From the NCBI GenBank assembly GCA_963826115.1, contig CAWGVS010000005.1:224001-288000 (forward strand): a stretch of DNA of 64,000 bases, read 5' to 3'. The translations under genes and the position numbers were made by a program. Shown one piece after another: positions 16,082-23,224 of the stretch. Position 1 is the stretch's first letter, and each line of letters starts with the position of its first letter. The notes below the pieces were generated by a model, which saw nothing but the letters and a program-made list of their open reading frames with translations, was not told where the DNA came from and did no database searches. Source of the stretch: an uncultured Candidatus Rokubacteria bacterium (GTDB taxonomy: Bacteria > Methylomirabilota > Methylomirabilia > Rokubacteriales > DASRDR01).

Positions 16082-17323
16082 ATGGCCCCCGACGCGCGGC
16101 ACGACGGCACGACGGCGGAGTTGACGAAGTTCGCCTGGGGTCCGGACCGCTTCAACCCGCGCGTCCGCGCGACCTCCCCGATGCCGAGGGCCGGCGCGGC
16201 GCCGCCCGACGTCATCTCACTGGCGTACGGGATGCCCGACCCGGCCCTGTTCCCGACGGCCGGCCTCGCCGCCGCCGCCCAGGAGGCGCTGGGCGACCCG
16301 GCCCGCTACGCGGTGGCGCTCCAGTACGGGAACGTCGGCGGCAACCCGCTTCTCCTCGCCGAGCTCGGCAAGAAGCTCGAGGGGGAGGAGGGGCGGCCGG
16401 TGCCGCCGGGCGGCCTCATCATGACGAACGGCTCCTCCCAGGCGATCGCGCTCGTCGTGCAGGCCCTGGCGGCCCCCGGTGACGCGTGCCTCTGCGAGGC
16501 GCCGACCTTCCTCGGGACCATCCACCACATCCGGTTCCAGGGCGTGCGAACCGTGCCCGTCTCGCTCGACGACGACGGGATCGACGTCGAAGGGACGGAG
16601 CGCGAGATTCGCCGGCTCGAGGCGGCCGGCACGCCGGCCCGCTTCATCTACACGATCCCCACGTTCAACAATCCCGCCGGGACGACGATGACGCTCGATC
16701 GGCGTCGCGCCTTGCTCGATCTCGCGGCGCGCCACGGCGTGCCCATCATCGAGGACGACGCATACCGCGACCTCCGCTTCGAGGGCGATCCCGTCCCGAC
16801 GCTCCACGCGCTGGACCGCGAGGGCCTCGTGATCCGGCTGGGCACCTTCTCGAAGATCGTCGCCCCCGGCGTGCGCTTGGGCTTCGTCCTCGCCGACCCG
16901 GCGGTGATCGAGCGGGTGCTGGCATTCAAGGCCGAGGGGAGCACGAACGGCTTCGCGTCGATGGTGGTCGGGACGTTCATGAAGACGGGCGGGCTCGCCG
17001 CGCACATCCAGACGCTGCGCTCGGCCTATCGGGAGCGGCGCGACGCCATGTACGAGGCGCTCGCCCGCGAGATGCCGGCGGGCGTCACGTGGACCCGCAC
17101 CGAGGGCGGGTTCTTCCTCTGGCTGACGATCCCGTCCCGGGCGGACATGACGAAGTTCAGCGCCCGCGCCGCCGAGGAGCGCGTCGTCGCGCTGGCGGGG
17201 ACCGAGTGCTTCCCCGACGGACGCGGAGCGCACAACCTCAGGCTGGCCTTCAGCCTTCAGCCGACGGACCGGATCGCCGAGGGCATCCGGCGGCTCGGAC
17301 GGGCCATTCGCGCCGGACTCTGA
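16082..17323 (+). CDS. PLP-dependent aminotransferase (class I, LysN-like)
   Basis: YTIPTFNNPAG, IIEDDAY, GTFSKIVAPGVRLG. Confidence 0.9.
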   Translation: MAPDARHDGTTAELTKFAWGPDRFNPRVRATSPMPRAGAAPPDVISLAYGMPDPALFPTAGLAAAAQEALGDPARYAVALQYGNVGGNPLLLAELGKKLEGEEGRPVPPGGLIMTNGSSQAIALVVQALAAPGDACLCEAPTFLGTIHHIRFQGVRTVPVSLDDDGIDVEGTEREIRRLEAAGTPARFIYTIPTFNNPAGTTMTLDRRRALLDLAARHGVPIIEDDAYRDLRFEGDPVPTLHALDREGLVIRLGTFSKIVAPGVRLGFVLADPAVIERVLAFKAEGSTNGFASMVVGTFMKTGGLAAHIQTLRSAYRERRDAMYEALAREMPAGVTWTRTEGGFFLWLTIPSRADMTKFSARAAEERVVALAGTECFPDGRGAHNLRLAFSLQPTDRIAEGIRRLGRAIRAGL

Positions 17324-17333
17324 GCCCGCAAGT

Positions 17334-17363
17334 TTGACGCGCGCCGACGCGCGATGCTACGGT
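17334..17363 (+). promoter_or_regulatory. Putative sigma70 promoter of the precursor-peptide array
   Basis: TTGACG (17334-17339), 18 bp spacer, extended -10 TG-C-TACGGT. Confidence 0.4.
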
Positions 17364-17406
17364 TCCGAGGGTGATGACGCGCCGGCCGGGGCGCGAGGGA
17401 GCGACG

Positions 17407-17547
17407 ATGGACGGGCGGGACGGTGACAGCCTGGCTGAGCGTCTGCCGGAGTACGAGCCGCCGCGCGTGGAGCGGGTGCTGACGCCGGCGGAGATCGAGC
17501 GGGAATTCCGGTACGCCGGCGAGCCCGACGGCACTCCGGGCTTGTGA
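17407..17547 (+). CDS. Putative RiPP precursor peptide A1 (46 aa)
   Basis: MDGRDGDSLAERLPEYEPPRVERVLTPAEIEREFRYAGEPDGTPGL*; RBS GAGGGAG upstream. Confidence 0.8.
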   Translation: MDGRDGDSLAERLPEYEPPRVERVLTPAEIEREFRYAGEPDGTPGL

Positions 17548-17681
17548 TGACGGATCGGGAGCGACCAGCGGAGGACGCGCCGAGCTATGAGCCGCCGCGC
17601 GTGGAGCGGGTGCTGACACCTGCCGAGATCGAGCGAGAGTTCCGGTACGCTGGCGGGGCCGACGGCACGGGGCCTGCGTAG
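17547..17681 (+). CDS. Putative RiPP precursor peptide A2 (44 aa)
   Basis: MTDRERPAEDAPSYEPPRVERVLTPAEIEREFRYAGGADGTGPA*; TGATG coupling to A1. Confidence 0.8.
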   Translation: MTDRERPAEDAPSYEPPRVERVLTPAEIEREFRYAGGADGTGPA

Positions 17682-17702
17682 ACAGCGGGGAGCGAACTGC
17701 GA

Positions 17703-17834
17703 ATGAGCGAAGACGAGGGGCGATTGACGGACGGACCGGGCTACGAGCCGCCGAGAATCGAGCGCGTGGTCACTTCAGCCGACCTCGATCGCGAAGTGCT
17801 GTACGCCGGCCCGGCGACCTCGGACCCGATATAG
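17703..17834 (+). CDS. Putative RiPP precursor peptide A3 (43 aa)
   Basis: MSEDEGRLTDGPGYEPPRIERVVTSADLDREVLYAGPATSDPI*; RBS GGGGAG. Confidence 0.78.
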   Translation: MSEDEGRLTDGPGYEPPRIERVVTSADLDREVLYAGPATSDPI

Positions 17835-17878
17835 CCGCCAGAGCAGCGCGCGATCTGCGGAGCATGGAAGCCGTGCGG

Positions 17879-18022
17879 ATGGGCGAACCAGACGGGGGTG
17901 GGGCGGACGCGACGCGCTACGAGCTCCCGCGGGTGGAGCGGCTCTTGACACCGGCGGACATCGAGCGCGAGTTCCTCTACGCCGGCCGCTTCGACGGTAG
18001 CCCGGTCTCGTCGGATTCCTGA
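17879..18022 (+). CDS. Putative RiPP precursor peptide A4 (47 aa; alternative ATG at 17864)
   Basis: MGEPDGGGADATRYELPRVERLLTPADIEREFLYAGRFDGSPVSSDS*. Confidence 0.78.
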   Translation: MGEPDGGGADATRYELPRVERLLTPADIEREFLYAGRFDGSPVSSDS

Positions 18023-18042
18023 CGGACGATTCGCGGGGAGGG

Positions 18043-18183
18043 ATGACGGATCGAGACCGACTGGACCATTGGTCGGCCCGCGAGCTCCCGCGAGCGGAGC
18101 GGCTGCGGACGCCGGCGGAGATCGGGCGCGACCTCCTGCATGCCAGCGACGTCGACATCATCACGGGCGCGACCGACGGATAG
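18043..18183 (+). CDS. Divergent precursor-like peptide A5 (46 aa)
   Basis: MTDRDRLDHWSARELPRAERLRTPAEIGRDLLHASDVDIITGATDG*; RBS GGGGAGG. Confidence 0.6.
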   Translation: MTDRDRLDHWSARELPRAERLRTPAEIGRDLLHASDVDIITGATDG

Positions 18184-18219
18184 CTGGGGCGCCACCGTCA
18201 TCCCTCTCGACGGCCTGCC

Positions 18220-18510
18220 ATGACCGGCCGCGGGGCCCCGGAACGCGCGTACGCGCGATCCGGGCAGGTCGAGGCATCGGTCGTCGGCGACCGAGTGGTG
18301 CTCTACCACCGGACGTCGCGCAGCGCGCTGGTCCTGAACCCCACGGGGAGCCGCCTCTGGGAGCGTCTCGCGACACCTGCCAGCCTGCCCGAGCTGATCG
18401 CGACGCTCCGCGAGCGGTTTCCGGCGCTGAGCGTCGAGGATGCGCGTCGGGACGTGGCCGCGTTCCTCGACGAGCTCACCCAACACGGGGCCATCGCCCC
18501 GCCGCCGTGA
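18220..18510 (+). CDS. PqqD-family RiPP recognition element (stand-alone RRE)
   Basis: 96 aa; VGDRVVLY...LVLNPTGSRLWERL...ELIATLRERF...DVAAFLDELTQHGAI matches the PqqD pattern. Confidence 0.88.
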   Translation: MTGRGAPERAYARSGQVEASVVGDRVVLYHRTSRSALVLNPTGSRLWERLATPASLPELIATLRERFPALSVEDARRDVAAFLDELTQHGAIAPPP

Positions 18511-19385
18511 TCCCCGGCGTGGGCCCGATCCGCTGGTCGGCCGGGCCGCTCTCGTTCGAGCTCCACTGCAACGCCCCGGCCGTCCGGTCACTGGCCCTGC
18601 CCGTCTTCCGTCCCTGGAGTCTGAACGACGGGGCGCCGCCGCCGACCCACATCTGGCGGATCGAGCGCATGGCGGAGCACGACGGGGCCGGAGAGTGGCA
18701 GGTCCGGTCCTCGGCCGGCGCGGAGGCGCGGGTCGGGAGCGCGGCACGCGCCGTCAGCGCCGTCGAGTACGGCGCCGTCGCCACCCTCGCGGAATCGGCC
18801 GCCGTCACCGCGCACGGCGCCCTGGTCGCGGTGGGCGGGCGCGGCGTTCTGCTGGTCGGGCGCGGCGAGGCCGGCAAGTCGACGCTCGCCTGCGCGCTCT
18901 GGTCCCGCGGGGCCGCCCTCCTCGGCGACGACATGGCCATCCTTGACGTCGCCACGGGCGAGGCCCGACCGGGGCCGAGGCGCGTGTCGCTCCGGGCCGA
19001 CAGCCGCGCGTTGCTCGGCGACGCCTTCTTCGACCGGGCCATGCGCGGGCCGTCGAGCGTCGCGCTCGGCGACTCCCACCTGTTCCACCCTGGCGAGATC
19101 GAGCCACGGCCCCGGCCCGAGACGGTGGAACTCGGCGCGATCGTGTTCCTGGCCCGCCGGAGCAGCGCGGTCGACGGCGCGCGCCTCGAGCCGATCGCGC
19201 CGGCCCATGCCCTCCTCGCGCTCCTGCCGTACTCGAACATCCGAACGCACCGGCCGTTTGGCGAGGCGATCCGGATCCTGGTCCCGCTCGCCGACCGCGT
19301 ACCCGCCTTTGACCTCGGGCGCGGGTCGCTGCCCGAGATGGCCGCGGCAGTGGAAGCGCTCGCGGGCGCCCCCTCACGGGCATGA
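18507..19385 (+). CDS. HPr-kinase-related P-loop kinase
   Basis: GTG overlaps the PqqD stop; HGALVAVGGRGVLLVGRGEAGKSTLACAL...LLGDD (HPrK-type His, Walker A and DD motif). Confidence 0.8.
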   Translation: MIPGVGPIRWSAGPLSFELHCNAPAVRSLALPVFRPWSLNDGAPPPTHIWRIERMAEHDGAGEWQVRSSAGAEARVGSAARAVSAVEYGAVATLAESAAVTAHGALVAVGGRGVLLVGRGEAGKSTLACALWSRGAALLGDDMAILDVATGEARPGPRRVSLRADSRALLGDAFFDRAMRGPSSVALGDSHLFHPGEIEPRPRPETVELGAIVFLARRSSAVDGARLEPIAPAHALLALLPYSNIRTHRPFGEAIRILVPLADRVPAFDLGRGSLPEMAAAVEALAGAPSRA

Positions 19386-21604
19386 GCCTGACCCCGGCGC
19401 TCCGCATCGGGTCGGCGGCGACGCCGCCCGCGACGTCGATGGCGCTCATGCTGACGCGTCGCTGCAACATGCGGTGTGGGCACTGCAGCGTCGAGAGCGG
19501 ACCGGACGTGCGTGGCGAGCCGACCGAGGAGGAGCTCCTCGACCGCGTCCGCCAGGCTGCGGCTGGCGGCGTCCGGGCGATCAACCTCACCGGCGGCGAG
19601 CCGATGCTGCGCCCGCGAACGGTCCTGCGGCTCGTGCGCGCGGCCCGCCGCCTGGGCGTGGCGACGACGCTCACGACGAACGGCTCCTGGGGGCGGACCG
19701 CTGCTCGCGCGCGGCGGGGTGTCCAGGCGCTCCGGCGCGCGGGCCTCGCGTCGCTCGCGATCAGCGTCGATCGCTACCACGACGAGTTCCAGGGCCCGAC
19801 GCCGACGCTCCTGATCGCGCGGGCCGCCGAGGAGGCGGGCCTGCCGGTGCGGATCAGCCTCGTCGTGCCGGCGGGGCGGTCGGAGGAGGACGGGCTCGCG
19901 GCGCTGGTCGCGCCCTTCGAGGGTCTTCGCAGCACGCGCCTCCGGTTCTACGGGCTCCAGGCGGTCGGGCGGGCGCGCGGTCTGCCGGTCGAGACGATGG
20001 GCGCCGACATCGACGGCTTCTGCGCCGCGTGCGCCGCCCCCGCGGTGACGGATGACGGGCGCCTGACCGCGTGCAACGGGCCCGCGTACTTCGCGCCCGA
20101 AGGGTCGCCGCTGATCGTCGGGTCGCTCCGGTCGGAGCCCCTCGGCGTGCTTCTCGCGCGCCACCGGGAGGATCCGATCCTCGACACGATCCGGACGCAC
20201 GGGCCGACGCGACTCAGGGACGAGCTCCGGGCGCTGCCCGGCTTCGAGACCTTCCCGTTCCGCAAGCGCTATCTCGGCATCTGTGACCTCTGCCTGCACG
20301 TCACGTCCGACGCCAAGGCCGTGGCGGCCCTGCGGGTGCGGCTCGACGATCCCGCGCGCGCGGCCGAGCGCCGGGCCGCGTGGCTGGTCATCCAGGACGG
20401 CCGCCGGCGTGGCGAGCTGAACGCCGGGCGCGTCAACGGTCCCGGCGCCGCGCGGGTCTTCCTCCGGGCCGCGACGGAGCCGGCGGCGACCTATGGCGAC
20501 GAGGCCGAGCGGATCCTCGCGCGCCCCGACGTCGACTGGAAGCGATGGGCCACGTACCTGACCGCGTGCGGCTTCGCCCGGTCGCTCGCGCCGGCGCTCG
20601 ACCGGCCCGGGCTCACGGGACGGGCGCCCGCGTTCTTCGTCGAGACGCTGCGGGCGGCCGCGGTGCGCGAGGGCATCCGCGAGCTGGTTCAGCGCGAGGT
20701 GCTGCGCGAGGTGGAGGCCGGTCTCGCCACGATCGGCGCCCGCGGCGTCGTGCTCAAGGGGATGGCGCTGGCGCTCCGGGCCCGCGAGGCGGGGGACGCG
20801 GTCCCGCCCCGCGCCACCGGGGATGTCGACGTCTACGTGGAGTCCGACCGCGCGCCCGCCCTGCGCCGGCACCTCCTCGAGCAGGGGTTCAGCGGCGTCC
20901 CGGACGCGCGCCCCACGTCGACCCACCACCTCGCGGCCGTGTCGATCCGCGGCATCCAGGTGGAGATCCACACGCGGATCACGGCGCCGCACTGGGGGCT
21001 GCCGGAGGCGGAGATGCTGAGGCGCGTCCGCCCGCTCGACTCGGCCCAGCGGCTCGACACGCTGGATCCCGAGGGGCTGCTGCTCCACTCGATGGTGCAC
21101 TGCTCCCAGCACTGCTTCTCGCACGGGCTCCGCGCGGCGTGGGACGTCCTCGCGGTCCTGCGGACCCGCCCGGACATCGACTGGGCCCGGCTGGCGGGCT
21201 GGGTGAAGGCGCTTCGGGCGCCGCGCGGCTTCTGGGTGCCGGCGGCGGTGCTGGCGCGGGAGCTCGGGCTGCCGCTACCGCCGGAGCTCGTGCGCGAGGC
21301 GCCGCGCGACGCGCTTCAGCGGAACCTCGAGGCGGTCGCCGCCCGGCGCCTCTTCCGCGTGGTCGAGCGAGTCGACGAGCTCGATCCCATCAGCCGGAAC
21401 GCGGTGCTGCTCCTCCTGCACGACTCCTTTGCGGCGCGGGCGCGCTATCTCGGCGCTCTGTCCCGATGGGCGCTGGTACGTCCCGGGCGGCGGACGGGGC
21501 CCGCCCGCTCCACGCCATCCGGGGCCGGGAGGCTCCGCCAGGCCTGGCGGCACTTCCGCCAGTACCGCGGCGCCGTCACGCGCGCGGCCGCCGACGAGGA
21601 CTGA
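19382..21604 (+). CDS. Radical SAM (Cys-rich SPASM/twitch-like) - nucleotidyltransferase (NTP_transf_5-like) fusion
   Basis: CNMRCGHC, LTGGEP, auxiliary CAAC...ACNGP...CDLC; C-terminal VVLKGMAL...RATGDVDVYV...VEIHTR. Confidence 0.85.
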   Translation: MSLTPALRIGSAATPPATSMALMLTRRCNMRCGHCSVESGPDVRGEPTEEELLDRVRQAAAGGVRAINLTGGEPMLRPRTVLRLVRAARRLGVATTLTTNGSWGRTAARARRGVQALRRAGLASLAISVDRYHDEFQGPTPTLLIARAAEEAGLPVRISLVVPAGRSEEDGLAALVAPFEGLRSTRLRFYGLQAVGRARGLPVETMGADIDGFCAACAAPAVTDDGRLTACNGPAYFAPEGSPLIVGSLRSEPLGVLLARHREDPILDTIRTHGPTRLRDELRALPGFETFPFRKRYLGICDLCLHVTSDAKAVAALRVRLDDPARAAERRAAWLVIQDGRRRGELNAGRVNGPGAARVFLRAATEPAATYGDEAERILARPDVDWKRWATYLTACGFARSLAPALDRPGLTGRAPAFFVETLRAAAVREGIRELVQREVLREVEAGLATIGARGVVLKGMALALRAREAGDAVPPRATGDVDVYVESDRAPALRRHLLEQGFSGVPDARPTSTHHLAAVSIRGIQVEIHTRITAPHWGLPEAEMLRRVRPLDSAQRLDTLDPEGLLLHSMVHCSQHCFSHGLRAAWDVLAVLRTRPDIDWARLAGWVKALRAPRGFWVPAAVLARELGLPLPPELVREAPRDALQRNLEAVAARRLFRVVERVDELDPISRNAVLLLLHDSFAARARYLGALSRWALVRPGRRTGPARSTPSGAGRLRQAWRHFRQYRGAVTRAAADED

Positions 21605-21637
21605 GCCGCCCGGCGACGGCGCGCCGGGCGGGGAGCT

Positions 21638-22459
21638 TCAGCGGCCCGGGTGCCCCTGCGTCTCGTGCCAGCGGGCAATCGCCTCGCCCGTCGTGAACCA
21701 GACTCCCGGGAACCGGCGGATGTAGGCCACGAGCTCCTCGAGCAGCATGATCCGCGAGGCGCGCCCGATCACGAAGGGGTGGCAGGTCAGCACGAAGCAG
21801 CCGTTCTCCCGGTAGATCCCCGAGAATTCTCGGCTCCACAGGTCGAACACCCGGGCCGGGTCGGCGATGACGTTGCCGGCCCCGTAGACGTGGCGGAAGA
21901 GCGGCGCGTCGTCGAGGATCCACTGCACCGGGACCTCGATCAGCGGGCCGTGGCTCGTCTCGAGGAGGTACGGCACGTCGTCGCCCATGAGCGAGCTGTC
22001 GTAGAGGAAGCCGTGGGCCTTCAGGATGCCGGGCGTCCTCACGTTCACGTCCCAGGACGGCGAGCGGTAGCCGGCCGGGCGCACGCCGAGCTGGTCGGCG
22101 AGGATCCGGAGCTGCGCTCGCATCACCGCTTCTTCCTGCGCGGCGTCCAGGCCGTCGACCGCCTCGTGGACGTTGCCGTGGGCGCCGATCTCGTGGCCGG
22201 CATCCCTGATCCGGAGGGACTGCGGGCGGTGGTTCTCGACCGTCCAGCCCGGAATGAAGAACGTCGCCGGGAGCCGCAGCTGGTCGAGCATGCGGAGGAT
22301 CCGGTCCACGCCGACGCGGGGTCCGAAGCGTCGCTCCTCGAGACCGGCCAGGCTTCGCTTGGACTTGTCAGGCTCCCGGAAGAGGAACCCCGACTCCGCG
22401 TCGAAGTCGAACGACAGCACCACCGCGCACTGCTGGCCCTCGGGCCACTGGTATCGCAT
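21638..22459 (-). CDS. Polysaccharide deacetylase family protein (PuuE/PgdA-like)
   Basis: SFDFD, ATFFIPG, HEIGAHGNVHE, GYRSP, YDSSLM. Confidence 0.88.
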   Translation of the reverse strand: MRYQWPEGQQCAVVLSFDFDAESGFLFREPDKSKRSLAGLEERRFGPRVGVDRILRMLDQLRLPATFFIPGWTVENHRPQSLRIRDAGHEIGAHGNVHEAVDGLDAAQEEAVMRAQLRILADQLGVRPAGYRSPSWDVNVRTPGILKAHGFLYDSSLMGDDVPYLLETSHGPLIEVPVQWILDDAPLFRHVYGAGNVIADPARVFDLWSREFSGIYRENGCFVLTCHPFVIGRASRIMLLEELVAYIRRFPGVWFTTGEAIARWHETQGHPGR

Positions 22460-22468
22460 CGTGGTCTC

Positions 22469-23224
22469 CTATCCCCCCATGAAGGCGCCGCCGTTGACGT
22501 GGATCGTCTGACCGGTGATCCAGCCGGAGTGCTCGCCGACGAGGAACACGGCCACGCGGGCGATCTCCTCCGGGGTGGCCATCCGGCCCTCCAGCGGAAT
22601 CTGTCGGCCCAGCTCGACGAGCTCCGCCTCCGAGTTGCCGTACCGCGGCTGCGCCGTGTCCGTGAGCCCCGGGGCGATCGCGTTGACCCGAATGCGGTGA
22701 GGCGCGAGCGCGAGCGCCATCGCGCGGGTGAGGCCCATGACTCCGGCTTTGCTCGCCGAGTAGTGGACACCGAGCGGCGTCCCCCGCATGGCCACCGAGG
22801 CGAGGTTCACGATGGCGCCCCCACGCCCGGCCTCGACCATCCGCCGCGCCGCGGCCTGCGCGCAGAGGAAGCTGCCTTTCAGGTTCACGTCGAGCACGTG
22901 GTCCCACTCCGCCTCGGTCATGGCGAGGAAGTCGACCCGCGGAAAGACCCCCGCGTTGTTGACGAGGATCGCCGGTGCCCCGAGCTCGCAGGCGACCGCG
23001 GCGACCATCGACTCCGCGTCGCCCGTCCGGGAAACGTCGCCCTGGACGAGGCACGCGCGGCGTCCGATCCCGCGGACCTCGTCCGCGACCCGCTCGGCGG
23101 CGGCGCGGTCGTCGAGGTAGTTCACGCCCACGTCCGCGCCGTCCCGTGCAAGGGCCACGGCAATCGCCCGGCCGATGCCCTGCTGGGCTCCGGTCACGAG
23201 TGCGACCCGACCGACGAGCTGCAT
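22469..23224 (-). CDS. SDR family oxidoreductase
   Basis: TGAQQGIG, NNAG, YSASK, VNAIAPG. Confidence 0.92.
   Translation of the reverse strand: MQLVGRVALVTGAQQGIGRAIAVALARDGADVGVNYLDDRAAAERVADEVRGIGRRACLVQGDVSRTGDAESMVAAVACELGAPAILVNNAGVFPRVDFLAMTEAEWDHVLDVNLKGSFLCAQAAARRMVEAGRGGAIVNLASVAMRGTPLGVHYSASKAGVMGLTRAMALALAPHRIRVNAIAPGLTDTAQPRYGNSEAELVELGRQIPLEGRMATPEEIARVAVFLVGEHSGWITGQTIHVNGGAFMGG

Follow-up and report, generated by a model that had tools for sequence, protein, structure and literature searches.

The window analysed here is a stretch of 64,000 nucleotides (nt) from an uncultured Candidatus Rokubacteria bacterium (contig CAWGVS010000005.1, positions 224,001 to 288,000), in which an operon-like unit of five short open reading frames (ORFs) followed by three overlapping genes occupies positions 17,334 to 21,604, as read from the sequence of 16500-22500 and the ORF listing. 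Judged by sequence, the unit has what generally marks a RiPP (a peptide made by the ribosome and modified after its translation) that depends on a RiPP recognition element (RRE), namely ORFs with a conserved leader and a variable core, an RRE and modifying enzymes. We conclude that it represents a real and widespread RiPP family, as yet uncharacterised, whose radical reaction may be new. Its features are as follows (aa, amino acids; SAM, S-adenosylmethionine).

17334..17363, + strand: sigma-70-like promoter candidate (TTGACG, 18 nt, extended -10 TGnTACGGT), putative in function
17407..17547, + strand: precursor A1, 46 aa, tail EPDGTPGL after YAG, Shine-Dalgarno-like GAGGGAG
17547..17681, + strand: precursor A2, 44 aa, tail GADGTGPA, 1-nt overlap with the A1 stop; peptide of the complex model
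17703..17834, + strand: precursor A3, 43 aa, tail PATSDPI
17879..18022, + strand: precursor A4, 47 aa (alternative ATG at 17864), tail RFDGSPVSSDS
18043..18183, + strand: degenerate precursor A5, 46 aa, Arg for the Tyr of YxxP, HAS for YAG
18220..18510, + strand: stand-alone RRE (PqqD family), 96 aa, PF05402 E=8e-15
18507..19385, + strand: HPrK-like P-loop kinase, 292 aa, Hpr_kinase_C PF07475 E=1.6e-8, GTGA overlap with the RRE gene
19382..21604, + strand: fusion of a radical SAM (rSAM) and an NTP_transf_5 nucleotidyltransferase domain, 740 aa, Radical_SAM E=6e-20, NTP_transf_5 E=2.5e-27, ATGA overlap with the kinase gene
Fusion, residues ~17-330: EpeE-fold rSAM domain, Cx3Cx2C at 28/32/35, helical linker after it
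Fusion, residues ~383-640: NTP_transf_5 domain, with K459-G460, R477, D481, D483 and E528

An earlier note on this DNA had described the same gene order, and its enzyme trio with start/stop overlaps is borne out by the domains and the GTGA and ATGA overlaps listed above. The five short ORFs with a common motif are likewise all present, A2-A5 being 40-70% identical to A1. A5 is degenerate, goes undetected by a broad family profile at E<0.01 and, to go by its sequence, is probably a poor or inactive substrate. The promoter-like motif fares less evenly: as TTTGAC-N-TGCTA[G/C]GGT it recurs at 8 of the 9 loci inspected, yet a strict sigma-70 promoter and terminator scan of the locus returned 0 sites. 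The flanking genes, an aminotransferase and a polysaccharide deacetylase, had been taken for unrelated metabolic genes, and we reject a place for them in the pathway: in one relative the cassette between the two has been lost by deletion, and flanks differ in other lineages. That relative (L096:7960-8290) retains a remnant of the 3' part of the fusion between the same two genes. What the note lacked were six distant precursor genes, the relationship of the rSAM domain to the epimerase EpeE, and a Cys-to-Asn change.

The precursor family and its spread

A profile of the five ORFs, run against the whole host genome, found 11 places at E<=7e-10, with the next match at 0.027. Given this gap the five ORFs are not chance, and we reject chance ORFs or a DNA repeat artefact as the source of the precursors. 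Six further precursor genes lie in three other places (C12:700146, C5:625348 and a four-gene array at C5:928083-928817), with none of the fusion-cassette enzymes near them, and the fusion itself is single copy in the host genome. Up to 11 precursor genes with different tails occur per genome. In another genome, G014, the enzyme lies on contig C13 and precursors only on C10 and C25, a split that supports precursor supply in trans. The host has four more RRE loci (L014:6196-10901, L015:7260-11913, L016:6998-10587 and L017:7148-8694), with kinase-like genes, glycosyltransferases and/or NTP_transf_5 genes and nothing that is clearly a short precursor; the other RRE, kinase and nucleotidyltransferase loci of the genome (L014-L020) were also considered as a precursor source and rejected, there being no precursor match in them.

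Seven of 16 orphan precursor sites fall within 600 bp of a tRNA, a neighbourhood that makes up 1.1% of the genome (L011:8147-8281, L012:9203-9349, L013:10084-10818; L103, L104, L111, L112). Some of these sites are orthologous, which leaves about four independent ones, and the pattern hints at spread of orphan precursors by tRNA-targeted integration. Elsewhere an orphan precursor lies by an Asn-synthase gene (divergent; L106:3269-5425) and another directly after a PhyH dioxygenase gene (L105:5912-7496), with a similar ORF at L113:5008-6613.

Two profile searches yielded 773 and 772 proteins, and the best 120 of each were analysed (240 precursors). They share a layout in which an N-terminus that varies is followed by Y-x-x-P-x-[VI]-E, T-P-x-x-L-x-R-E-[VIF]-x, YAG and a tail. 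YAG is present in 238/240 of these best-scoring precursors, and orphan variants read YSG, YGG or FAG. Tails span 4-16 residues, mostly 7-10, with no conserved position. Ser or Thr nonetheless occurs in every one of 208 distinct tails (those up to 20 residues, 2 longer tails being left out), and within the first five residues in 207/208. From shuffling we would expect 26.4 of them to have neither residue (minimum 16 in 300 shuffles), against 0/208 observed, and among same-length control stretches upstream of YxxP 49/188 have neither. Selection on tail Ser/Thr is thereby supported at the sequence level and fits the kinase, in keeping with the tail phosphorylation suggested earlier. A C-terminal Ser occurs in only 7/208 tails, and Cys in 1/120 and 0/120 tails of the two best-120 sets. 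No Pfam or NCBIfam family covers the precursors: 41 members scanned gave a single chance match (E=0.16).

The nearest relatives of the fusion, at 75-83% identity, are Candidatus Rokubacteria/Methylomirabilia records. Precursors occur in 9/14 same-genus genomes and in 0/46 others; eight of the 14 carry the fusion, always with precursors, five genomes have neither, and the one genome with precursors only is 68% complete. Note that same-genus genomes are kin rather than independent observations. More broadly, 243 homologues of the fusion were found at E<=1e-10 among 8000 scored candidates, and homologue figures given below for the fusion refer to the best 120 of these 243 (45-91% identity). Named carriers comprise Synechococcus sp. 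CBW1004 (P0197, cultured) and, by fusion sequence only, Binatia, Vicinamibacterales, Sumerlaeaceae and Abditibacteriaceae; two precursors are named Gemmatimonadota, as are most often the members of an Atlas cluster of 156. Genome sweeps found the fusion in 10/251 genomes of the host phylum, in 4/301 of one cyanobacterial family (one merely a C-terminal remnant) and in 0/401 sampled genomes of another phylum, the last a weak test in which just 2 candidates were scored for each genome and a positive control was lacking.

Of 24 informative loci, 22 hold the precursor family within the cassette, the exceptions being G014 and L127, as against 0/132 control loci of other rSAM genes. With duplicates removed, the 24 comprise 12 loci from genomes (the window not counted) and 12 from metagenomes; seven further metagenome loci that start inside the RRE or kinase gene were left out. 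The earlier note had named similar peptides beside homologous enzyme trios as a check on its reading, and in these 22 loci they are there. The gene set is confirmed as real and as conserved across several bacterial groups. In L027 / L101:6900-9980 the kinase and fusion are broken into several frames, through sequencing error or decay.

Tailoring enzymes and a proposed pathway

The structure predicted for the fusion has a confidence (predicted local distance difference test, pLDDT) of 87.9. EpeE is the best fold match of its rSAM domain (Foldseek template modelling score 0.80; Z 27.9, root-mean-square deviation 3.2, 305 aligned residues; next Z 18.6), a profile match to EpeE reaches E 3e-31 over the whole domain, and the best NCBIfam rSAM model is the YydG/EpeE epimerase TIGR04078, at 76.3 bits against a cut-off of 300. 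We therefore see an EpeE-type twitch domain, and not a SPASM enzyme. C214, C231, C301 and C304, kept in 117-120 of the 120 homologues, are probably the auxiliary cluster ligands. In the alignment C231-N232 stands opposite C222-C223 of EpeE, and position 232 is Asn in 113/120 homologues and Cys in 0/120; an exhaustive search delimits a clade of 38 representatives at >=340 bits, with Asn in 37 and Thr in 1. Outside the fusion clade Cys-Cys is kept in 72/112 rows (8 rows gapped, some Asn rows being clade fragments). In EpeE, Cys223 is the hydrogen donor that completes epimerisation (PMC13012085), and mutating it resulted in breakage of the peptide (PMC8326336). There is also a large family of stand-alone EpeE-like rSAMs (P0420-P0525), most with the Cys-Cys pair and with no known substrates, which may be unrecognised peptide epimerases.

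We modelled the fusion with SAM, two clusters and precursor A2. The complex scores 0.84, compared with 0.00 for the best of 3 controls; the score mark is reached by 116/157 solved pairs and 2/215 mismatched pairs, a calibration that carries over roughly to this case. At least 51% of contacts are shared among runs, and peptide pLDDT is 45-51. A2 residues 23-25 and 27-40 contact the rSAM domain and linker: F32 meets 213-215, Y34 meets 190/193/216/231/232/234, A35 meets 159/161/190 and G36 meets N232, so that Y34-A35-G36 touch Y190, Q193, C231 and N232, with the best-resolved contacts on F32-G36. Neither a YxxP residue nor a nucleotidyltransferase catalytic residue is among the listed contacts. 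The model supports a placement of YAG, rather than the tail, in the rSAM active site, and YAG as the target of the enzyme. Where the earlier note had the rSAM act on the variable tails, the invariant YAG and the model instead indicate the leader/tail junction.

The kinase has His103, GKST (123-126) and Asp141-Asp142 intact, and 90% or more of 22 homologues retain the motifs. HprK-like kinases phosphorylate core Ser3 in linear polyphosphorylated peptides (LPP; PMC13381572) and, in pseudomycoidin, the Ser at the C-terminus; there PsmN is required for a hexose to be added to the phosphate (PMC6993621). Transferase motifs are conserved in 117-120 of the 120 homologues, yet 8/38 clade representatives and L125 have lost the transferase core and kept rSAM and linker. 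L125, with kinase-like DNA upstream and precursors downstream, carries its shortened fusion at 291-2984 and a formyltransferase-like gene after the precursors. The C-terminal half of the fusion has no sequence match in the PDB, and a fold search found generic nucleotidyltransferase folds only (MenT1 Z 12.4, ANT(2'') Z 12.2). No RRE lies between precursor and kinase in L126, L132 and L147, all short contigs. Because of this gap and the loss of the transferase core in a sub-branch, the constant parts are precursor, kinase and rSAM, and the nucleotidyltransferase is, on the best reading of the sequences, accessory and not class-defining. The earlier idea of tail nucleotidylation suffers from the same loss and from its closest tested precedent, PsmN, which concerns a hexose rather than a nucleoside monophosphate. 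Among 71 flanking proteins scanned in 16 loci (most of 105 listed ORFs, redundant orthologues being left out and some frames corrected) there is no peptidase, and no transporter common across lineages.

We propose, with a probability of roughly 55%, a compact RiPP pathway of an undescribed family in which the tail is the kinase's target for phosphorylation, the rSAM generates a Cα radical on YAG that it probably goes on to oxidise, and the transferase is accessory. By likeness to lasso and LPP leaders, the RRE would very probably bind the YxxPx[VI] stretch. To go by the complex model, the conserved segment L23-R33 would likely dock on the rSAM twitch domain and feed YAG into the active site, where the enzyme would take the Cα hydrogen of the YAG Ala, or of the next Gly. 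Since there is no Cys at the EpeE donor position, the auxiliary cluster would more readily oxidise the Cα radical to a ketimine than see it quenched. The kinase would, with high probability, (poly)phosphorylate a Ser/Thr among the five residues that open the tail, and an intact transferase might on balance add a sugar or nucleoside monophosphate to the tail phosphate. Many precursor genes, some far from the enzymes, would feed one enzyme set and give rise to a small library of short acidic phosphopeptides.

What would become of the ketimine? Hydrolysis, overall an unlikely outcome, would break the backbone into leader-Tyr-amide and a pyruvoyl-capped tail. The rSAM would then be a radical 'leader peptidase', an epimerase fold with its donor Cys fixed as Asn in which the Cα radical at the YAG Ala is oxidised and the backbone breaks, a role to which we give the same low odds. 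Such scission would remove the leader without a protease, leaving the short phosphorylated tail pyruvoyl-capped or a Tyr-amide product, and would explain the invariance of the YAG Ala, the restriction of its variants to small residues and the missing peptidase. If true, radical SAM backbone scission would be the defining trait of a new RiPP class whose precursor genes are dispersed around the chromosome. Oxidative scission at an Ala Cα to amide and ketone is carried out by PflC/PosC (PMC12636437, a preprint), and the available part of a review on leader removal names no rSAM route (PMC10885120). Oxidations other than scission are, as a group, a shade less likely again: trapping of the ketimine by a Tyr/Ser/Thr oxygen would be a rather improbable fate and tautomerisation to dehydroalanine a very improbable one.

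A number of points weigh against the proposed pathway. The counts of YAG and of tail Ser/Thr are both biased, as the profiles contain YAG and some tail columns and the best 120/773 and 120/772 were taken; a partial check on 19 precursors beside distant enzymes, found by the YxxP pattern and then by eye and ignoring unrelated short ORFs, gave YAG in 19/19 and Ser/Thr tails in 18/19, with one tail (L119) that has neither residue. The complex may have passed through its likeness to solved EpeE-peptide complexes, the peptide fold is uncertain, and the model output comes without SAM contacts, leaving the attacked atom unspecified. Housekeeping proteases could remove the leader, so that the absence of a peptidase does not demand radical scission, and LppN was inactive in a heterologous test (PMC13381572). 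Finally, going by alignment and model, another hydrogen donor is possible, whether an extra Cys (at 217 or 218 in 105/120 homologues) or the invariant Y190, which touches the Ala; EpeE C223S, moreover, keeps slow epimerisation (PMC13012085).

These last points, together with EpeE being the best sequence, profile and fold match, speak for an rSAM that is still an epimerase. The Ala of YAG (or a neighbour) would be turned into its D-form with the help of a relocated hydrogen donor, C217 (in a loop aligned to EpeE Tyr209/Asp210) or Y190, and a housekeeping protease would trim the leader, giving D-Ala-containing phosphopeptides. However, 15/120 homologues without a Cys at 217/218 (one of them truncated) keep N232, YGG variants (1/240; L107, L113) have no stereocentre at the Ala position, and residue 217 appears to lie outside the confident part of the modelled interface. 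We regard the epimerase as somewhat unlikely.

In the version of the earlier note, YAG would be the leader end only and the rSAM would modify the Asp/Ser/Thr tail by epimerisation, Ser/Thr oxidation or an ether crosslink. The leader end LxxExxxAG presumably resembles a double-glycine site, one C39 peptidase is encoded elsewhere in the genome, tail residues 37-40 fall within the predicted interface and 207/208 tails offer an early Ser/Thr; yet tails of down to 4 residues, no conserved tail position and a model whose best-resolved contacts are those of F32-G36 make this improbable. In biosynthesis of the pyrroloquinoline quinone or mycofactocin kind, the peptide is a scaffold for a small-molecule product. 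It is more improbable still that a small molecule is here cut from the invariant Tyr-Ala-Gly, or ligated to the peptide by kinase and nucleotidyltransferase with the tail as phosphorylated handle, for although YAG invariance would suit this and fosfazinomycin ligation uses a YxxP peptide, RRE, kinases and a nucleotidyltransferase (PMC13622209), a genome can hold up to 11 genes with different tails, the flanks have no conserved small-molecule or partner genes, and the nucleotidyltransferase core is lost in a sub-branch.

Comparison with known systems

With the epipeptides (EpeX/EpeE = YydF/YydG of Bacillus subtilis) the system shares an rSAM fold with a twitch-type auxiliary cluster and probably Cα hydrogen abstraction on the precursor. 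It differs in having Asn for the hydrogen-donor Cys223, a fused nucleotidyltransferase, an RRE and a kinase, in having neither EpeP protease nor EpeAB transporter, and in its short acidic tails in place of the EpeX core. We reject epipeptide membership on the residue at the 223 position (non-Cys in 120/120 and 38/38), the TIGR04078 score of 76.3 versus 300 bits and the absence of a peptidase from the scanned flanks. A different cassette, L138:2473-11038, holds a nucleotidyltransferase-like gene, an RRE, a kinase-like gene, an EpeE-like rSAM (32% identity), a 60-aa WxxP ORF and an Asn-synthase gene.

LPP (Popov et al. 2026, PMC13381572) share with it the YxxP leader, stand-alone RRE, HprK-like kinase, nucleotidyltransferase and lack of a lasso cyclase, and for the kinase step their phosphorylation of an internal Ser comes nearest as a precedent; the selection seen on tail Ser/Thr is consistent with LPP-like polyphosphorylation of core Ser. 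Missing here are the SpI leader peptidase and MsbA-like exporter of LPP, which are mainly from Bacillota, and of their leader, YxxPxVLxHQxIxFETxxS, only YxxP is common to the present precursors (PMC13381572). The rSAM, the tails of 4-16 residues and the fusion of nucleotidyltransferase to rSAM are the present system's own. LPP membership is rejected on the differing leader, on finding no peptidase in the 71 flanking proteins and on a sole ABC transporter (divergent) beside L198.

Phosphorylated lasso peptides (paeninodin, PadeK; pseudomycoidin, PsmK/PsmN, PMC6993621) likewise have an RRE, an HprK-like kinase with a DD motif and a nucleotidyltransferase with a DxD motif. As the earlier note had observed, there is no lasso cyclase or B2 peptidase here: both are absent from cassette and flanks, the genome's only B2 lying on C6 in a separate cluster. 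The tails, mostly 7-10 residues, are too short and variable for a lariat that needs a ring Asp/Glu at 7-9 plus a tail, and we reject lasso membership. That separate lasso-type cluster (L018:2324-7808; Asn synthase, B2, RRE) also includes a 176-aa ORF with a Peptidase_S74 domain. Sactipeptide or ranthipeptide membership fails on the near absence of the Cys donor from tails (1/120, 0/120).

The TIGRFAM HPr-rel-A system and SynChlorMet cassette resemble the present one in joining a PqqD-like protein to an HprK-related kinase, and in the SynChlorMet cassette the two are also paired with rSAM enzymes. Membership in either is rejected, all models scoring under cut-off: TIGR04353, the best NCBIfam match of the RRE, which is below all cut-offs, reaches 33.3 against 35 bits, TIGR04352 60/200, ScmC 18/125 and ScmD 24/100, and 0/41 precursors match any NCBIfam precursor model. 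We found no paper on either system. PflC/PosC, finally, abstract a Cα hydrogen at Ala (Gly tolerated) in a RiPP to give amide and ketone, but are alpha-ketoglutarate/Fe HEXXH enzymes of unrelated fold that remove a C-terminal tetrapeptide (PMC12636437).

The full-text literature searched, which leaves most subscription journals outside, holds no description of the family, its listing in a sequence-similarity network being possible; by word search it is unmentioned in the available parts of the RRE-Finder and structure-based RRE papers (PMC7470986, PMC12710340), the daptide paper and LPP supplements. Together with the failed lasso, LPP and epipeptide tests, this agrees with the earlier impression that the architecture is not a described class. 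The family lends itself to testing: its minimal cassette has four parts, its precursors come in hundreds of natural variants, and the enzyme has a cultured carrier, Synechococcus sp. CBW1004. Its clade is a natural 'Cys223Asn' version of the well-studied EpeE in which to test directly how a single residue steers a Cα radical to epimerisation or to oxidation, and the fusion to a maturase offers a setting for finding the reaction of PF14907 nucleotidyltransferases. By its sequences, then, the system resembles a hybrid that joins the tailoring of LPP and phosphorylated lasso peptides to a radical step of the epipeptide type, while failing a defining feature of each.

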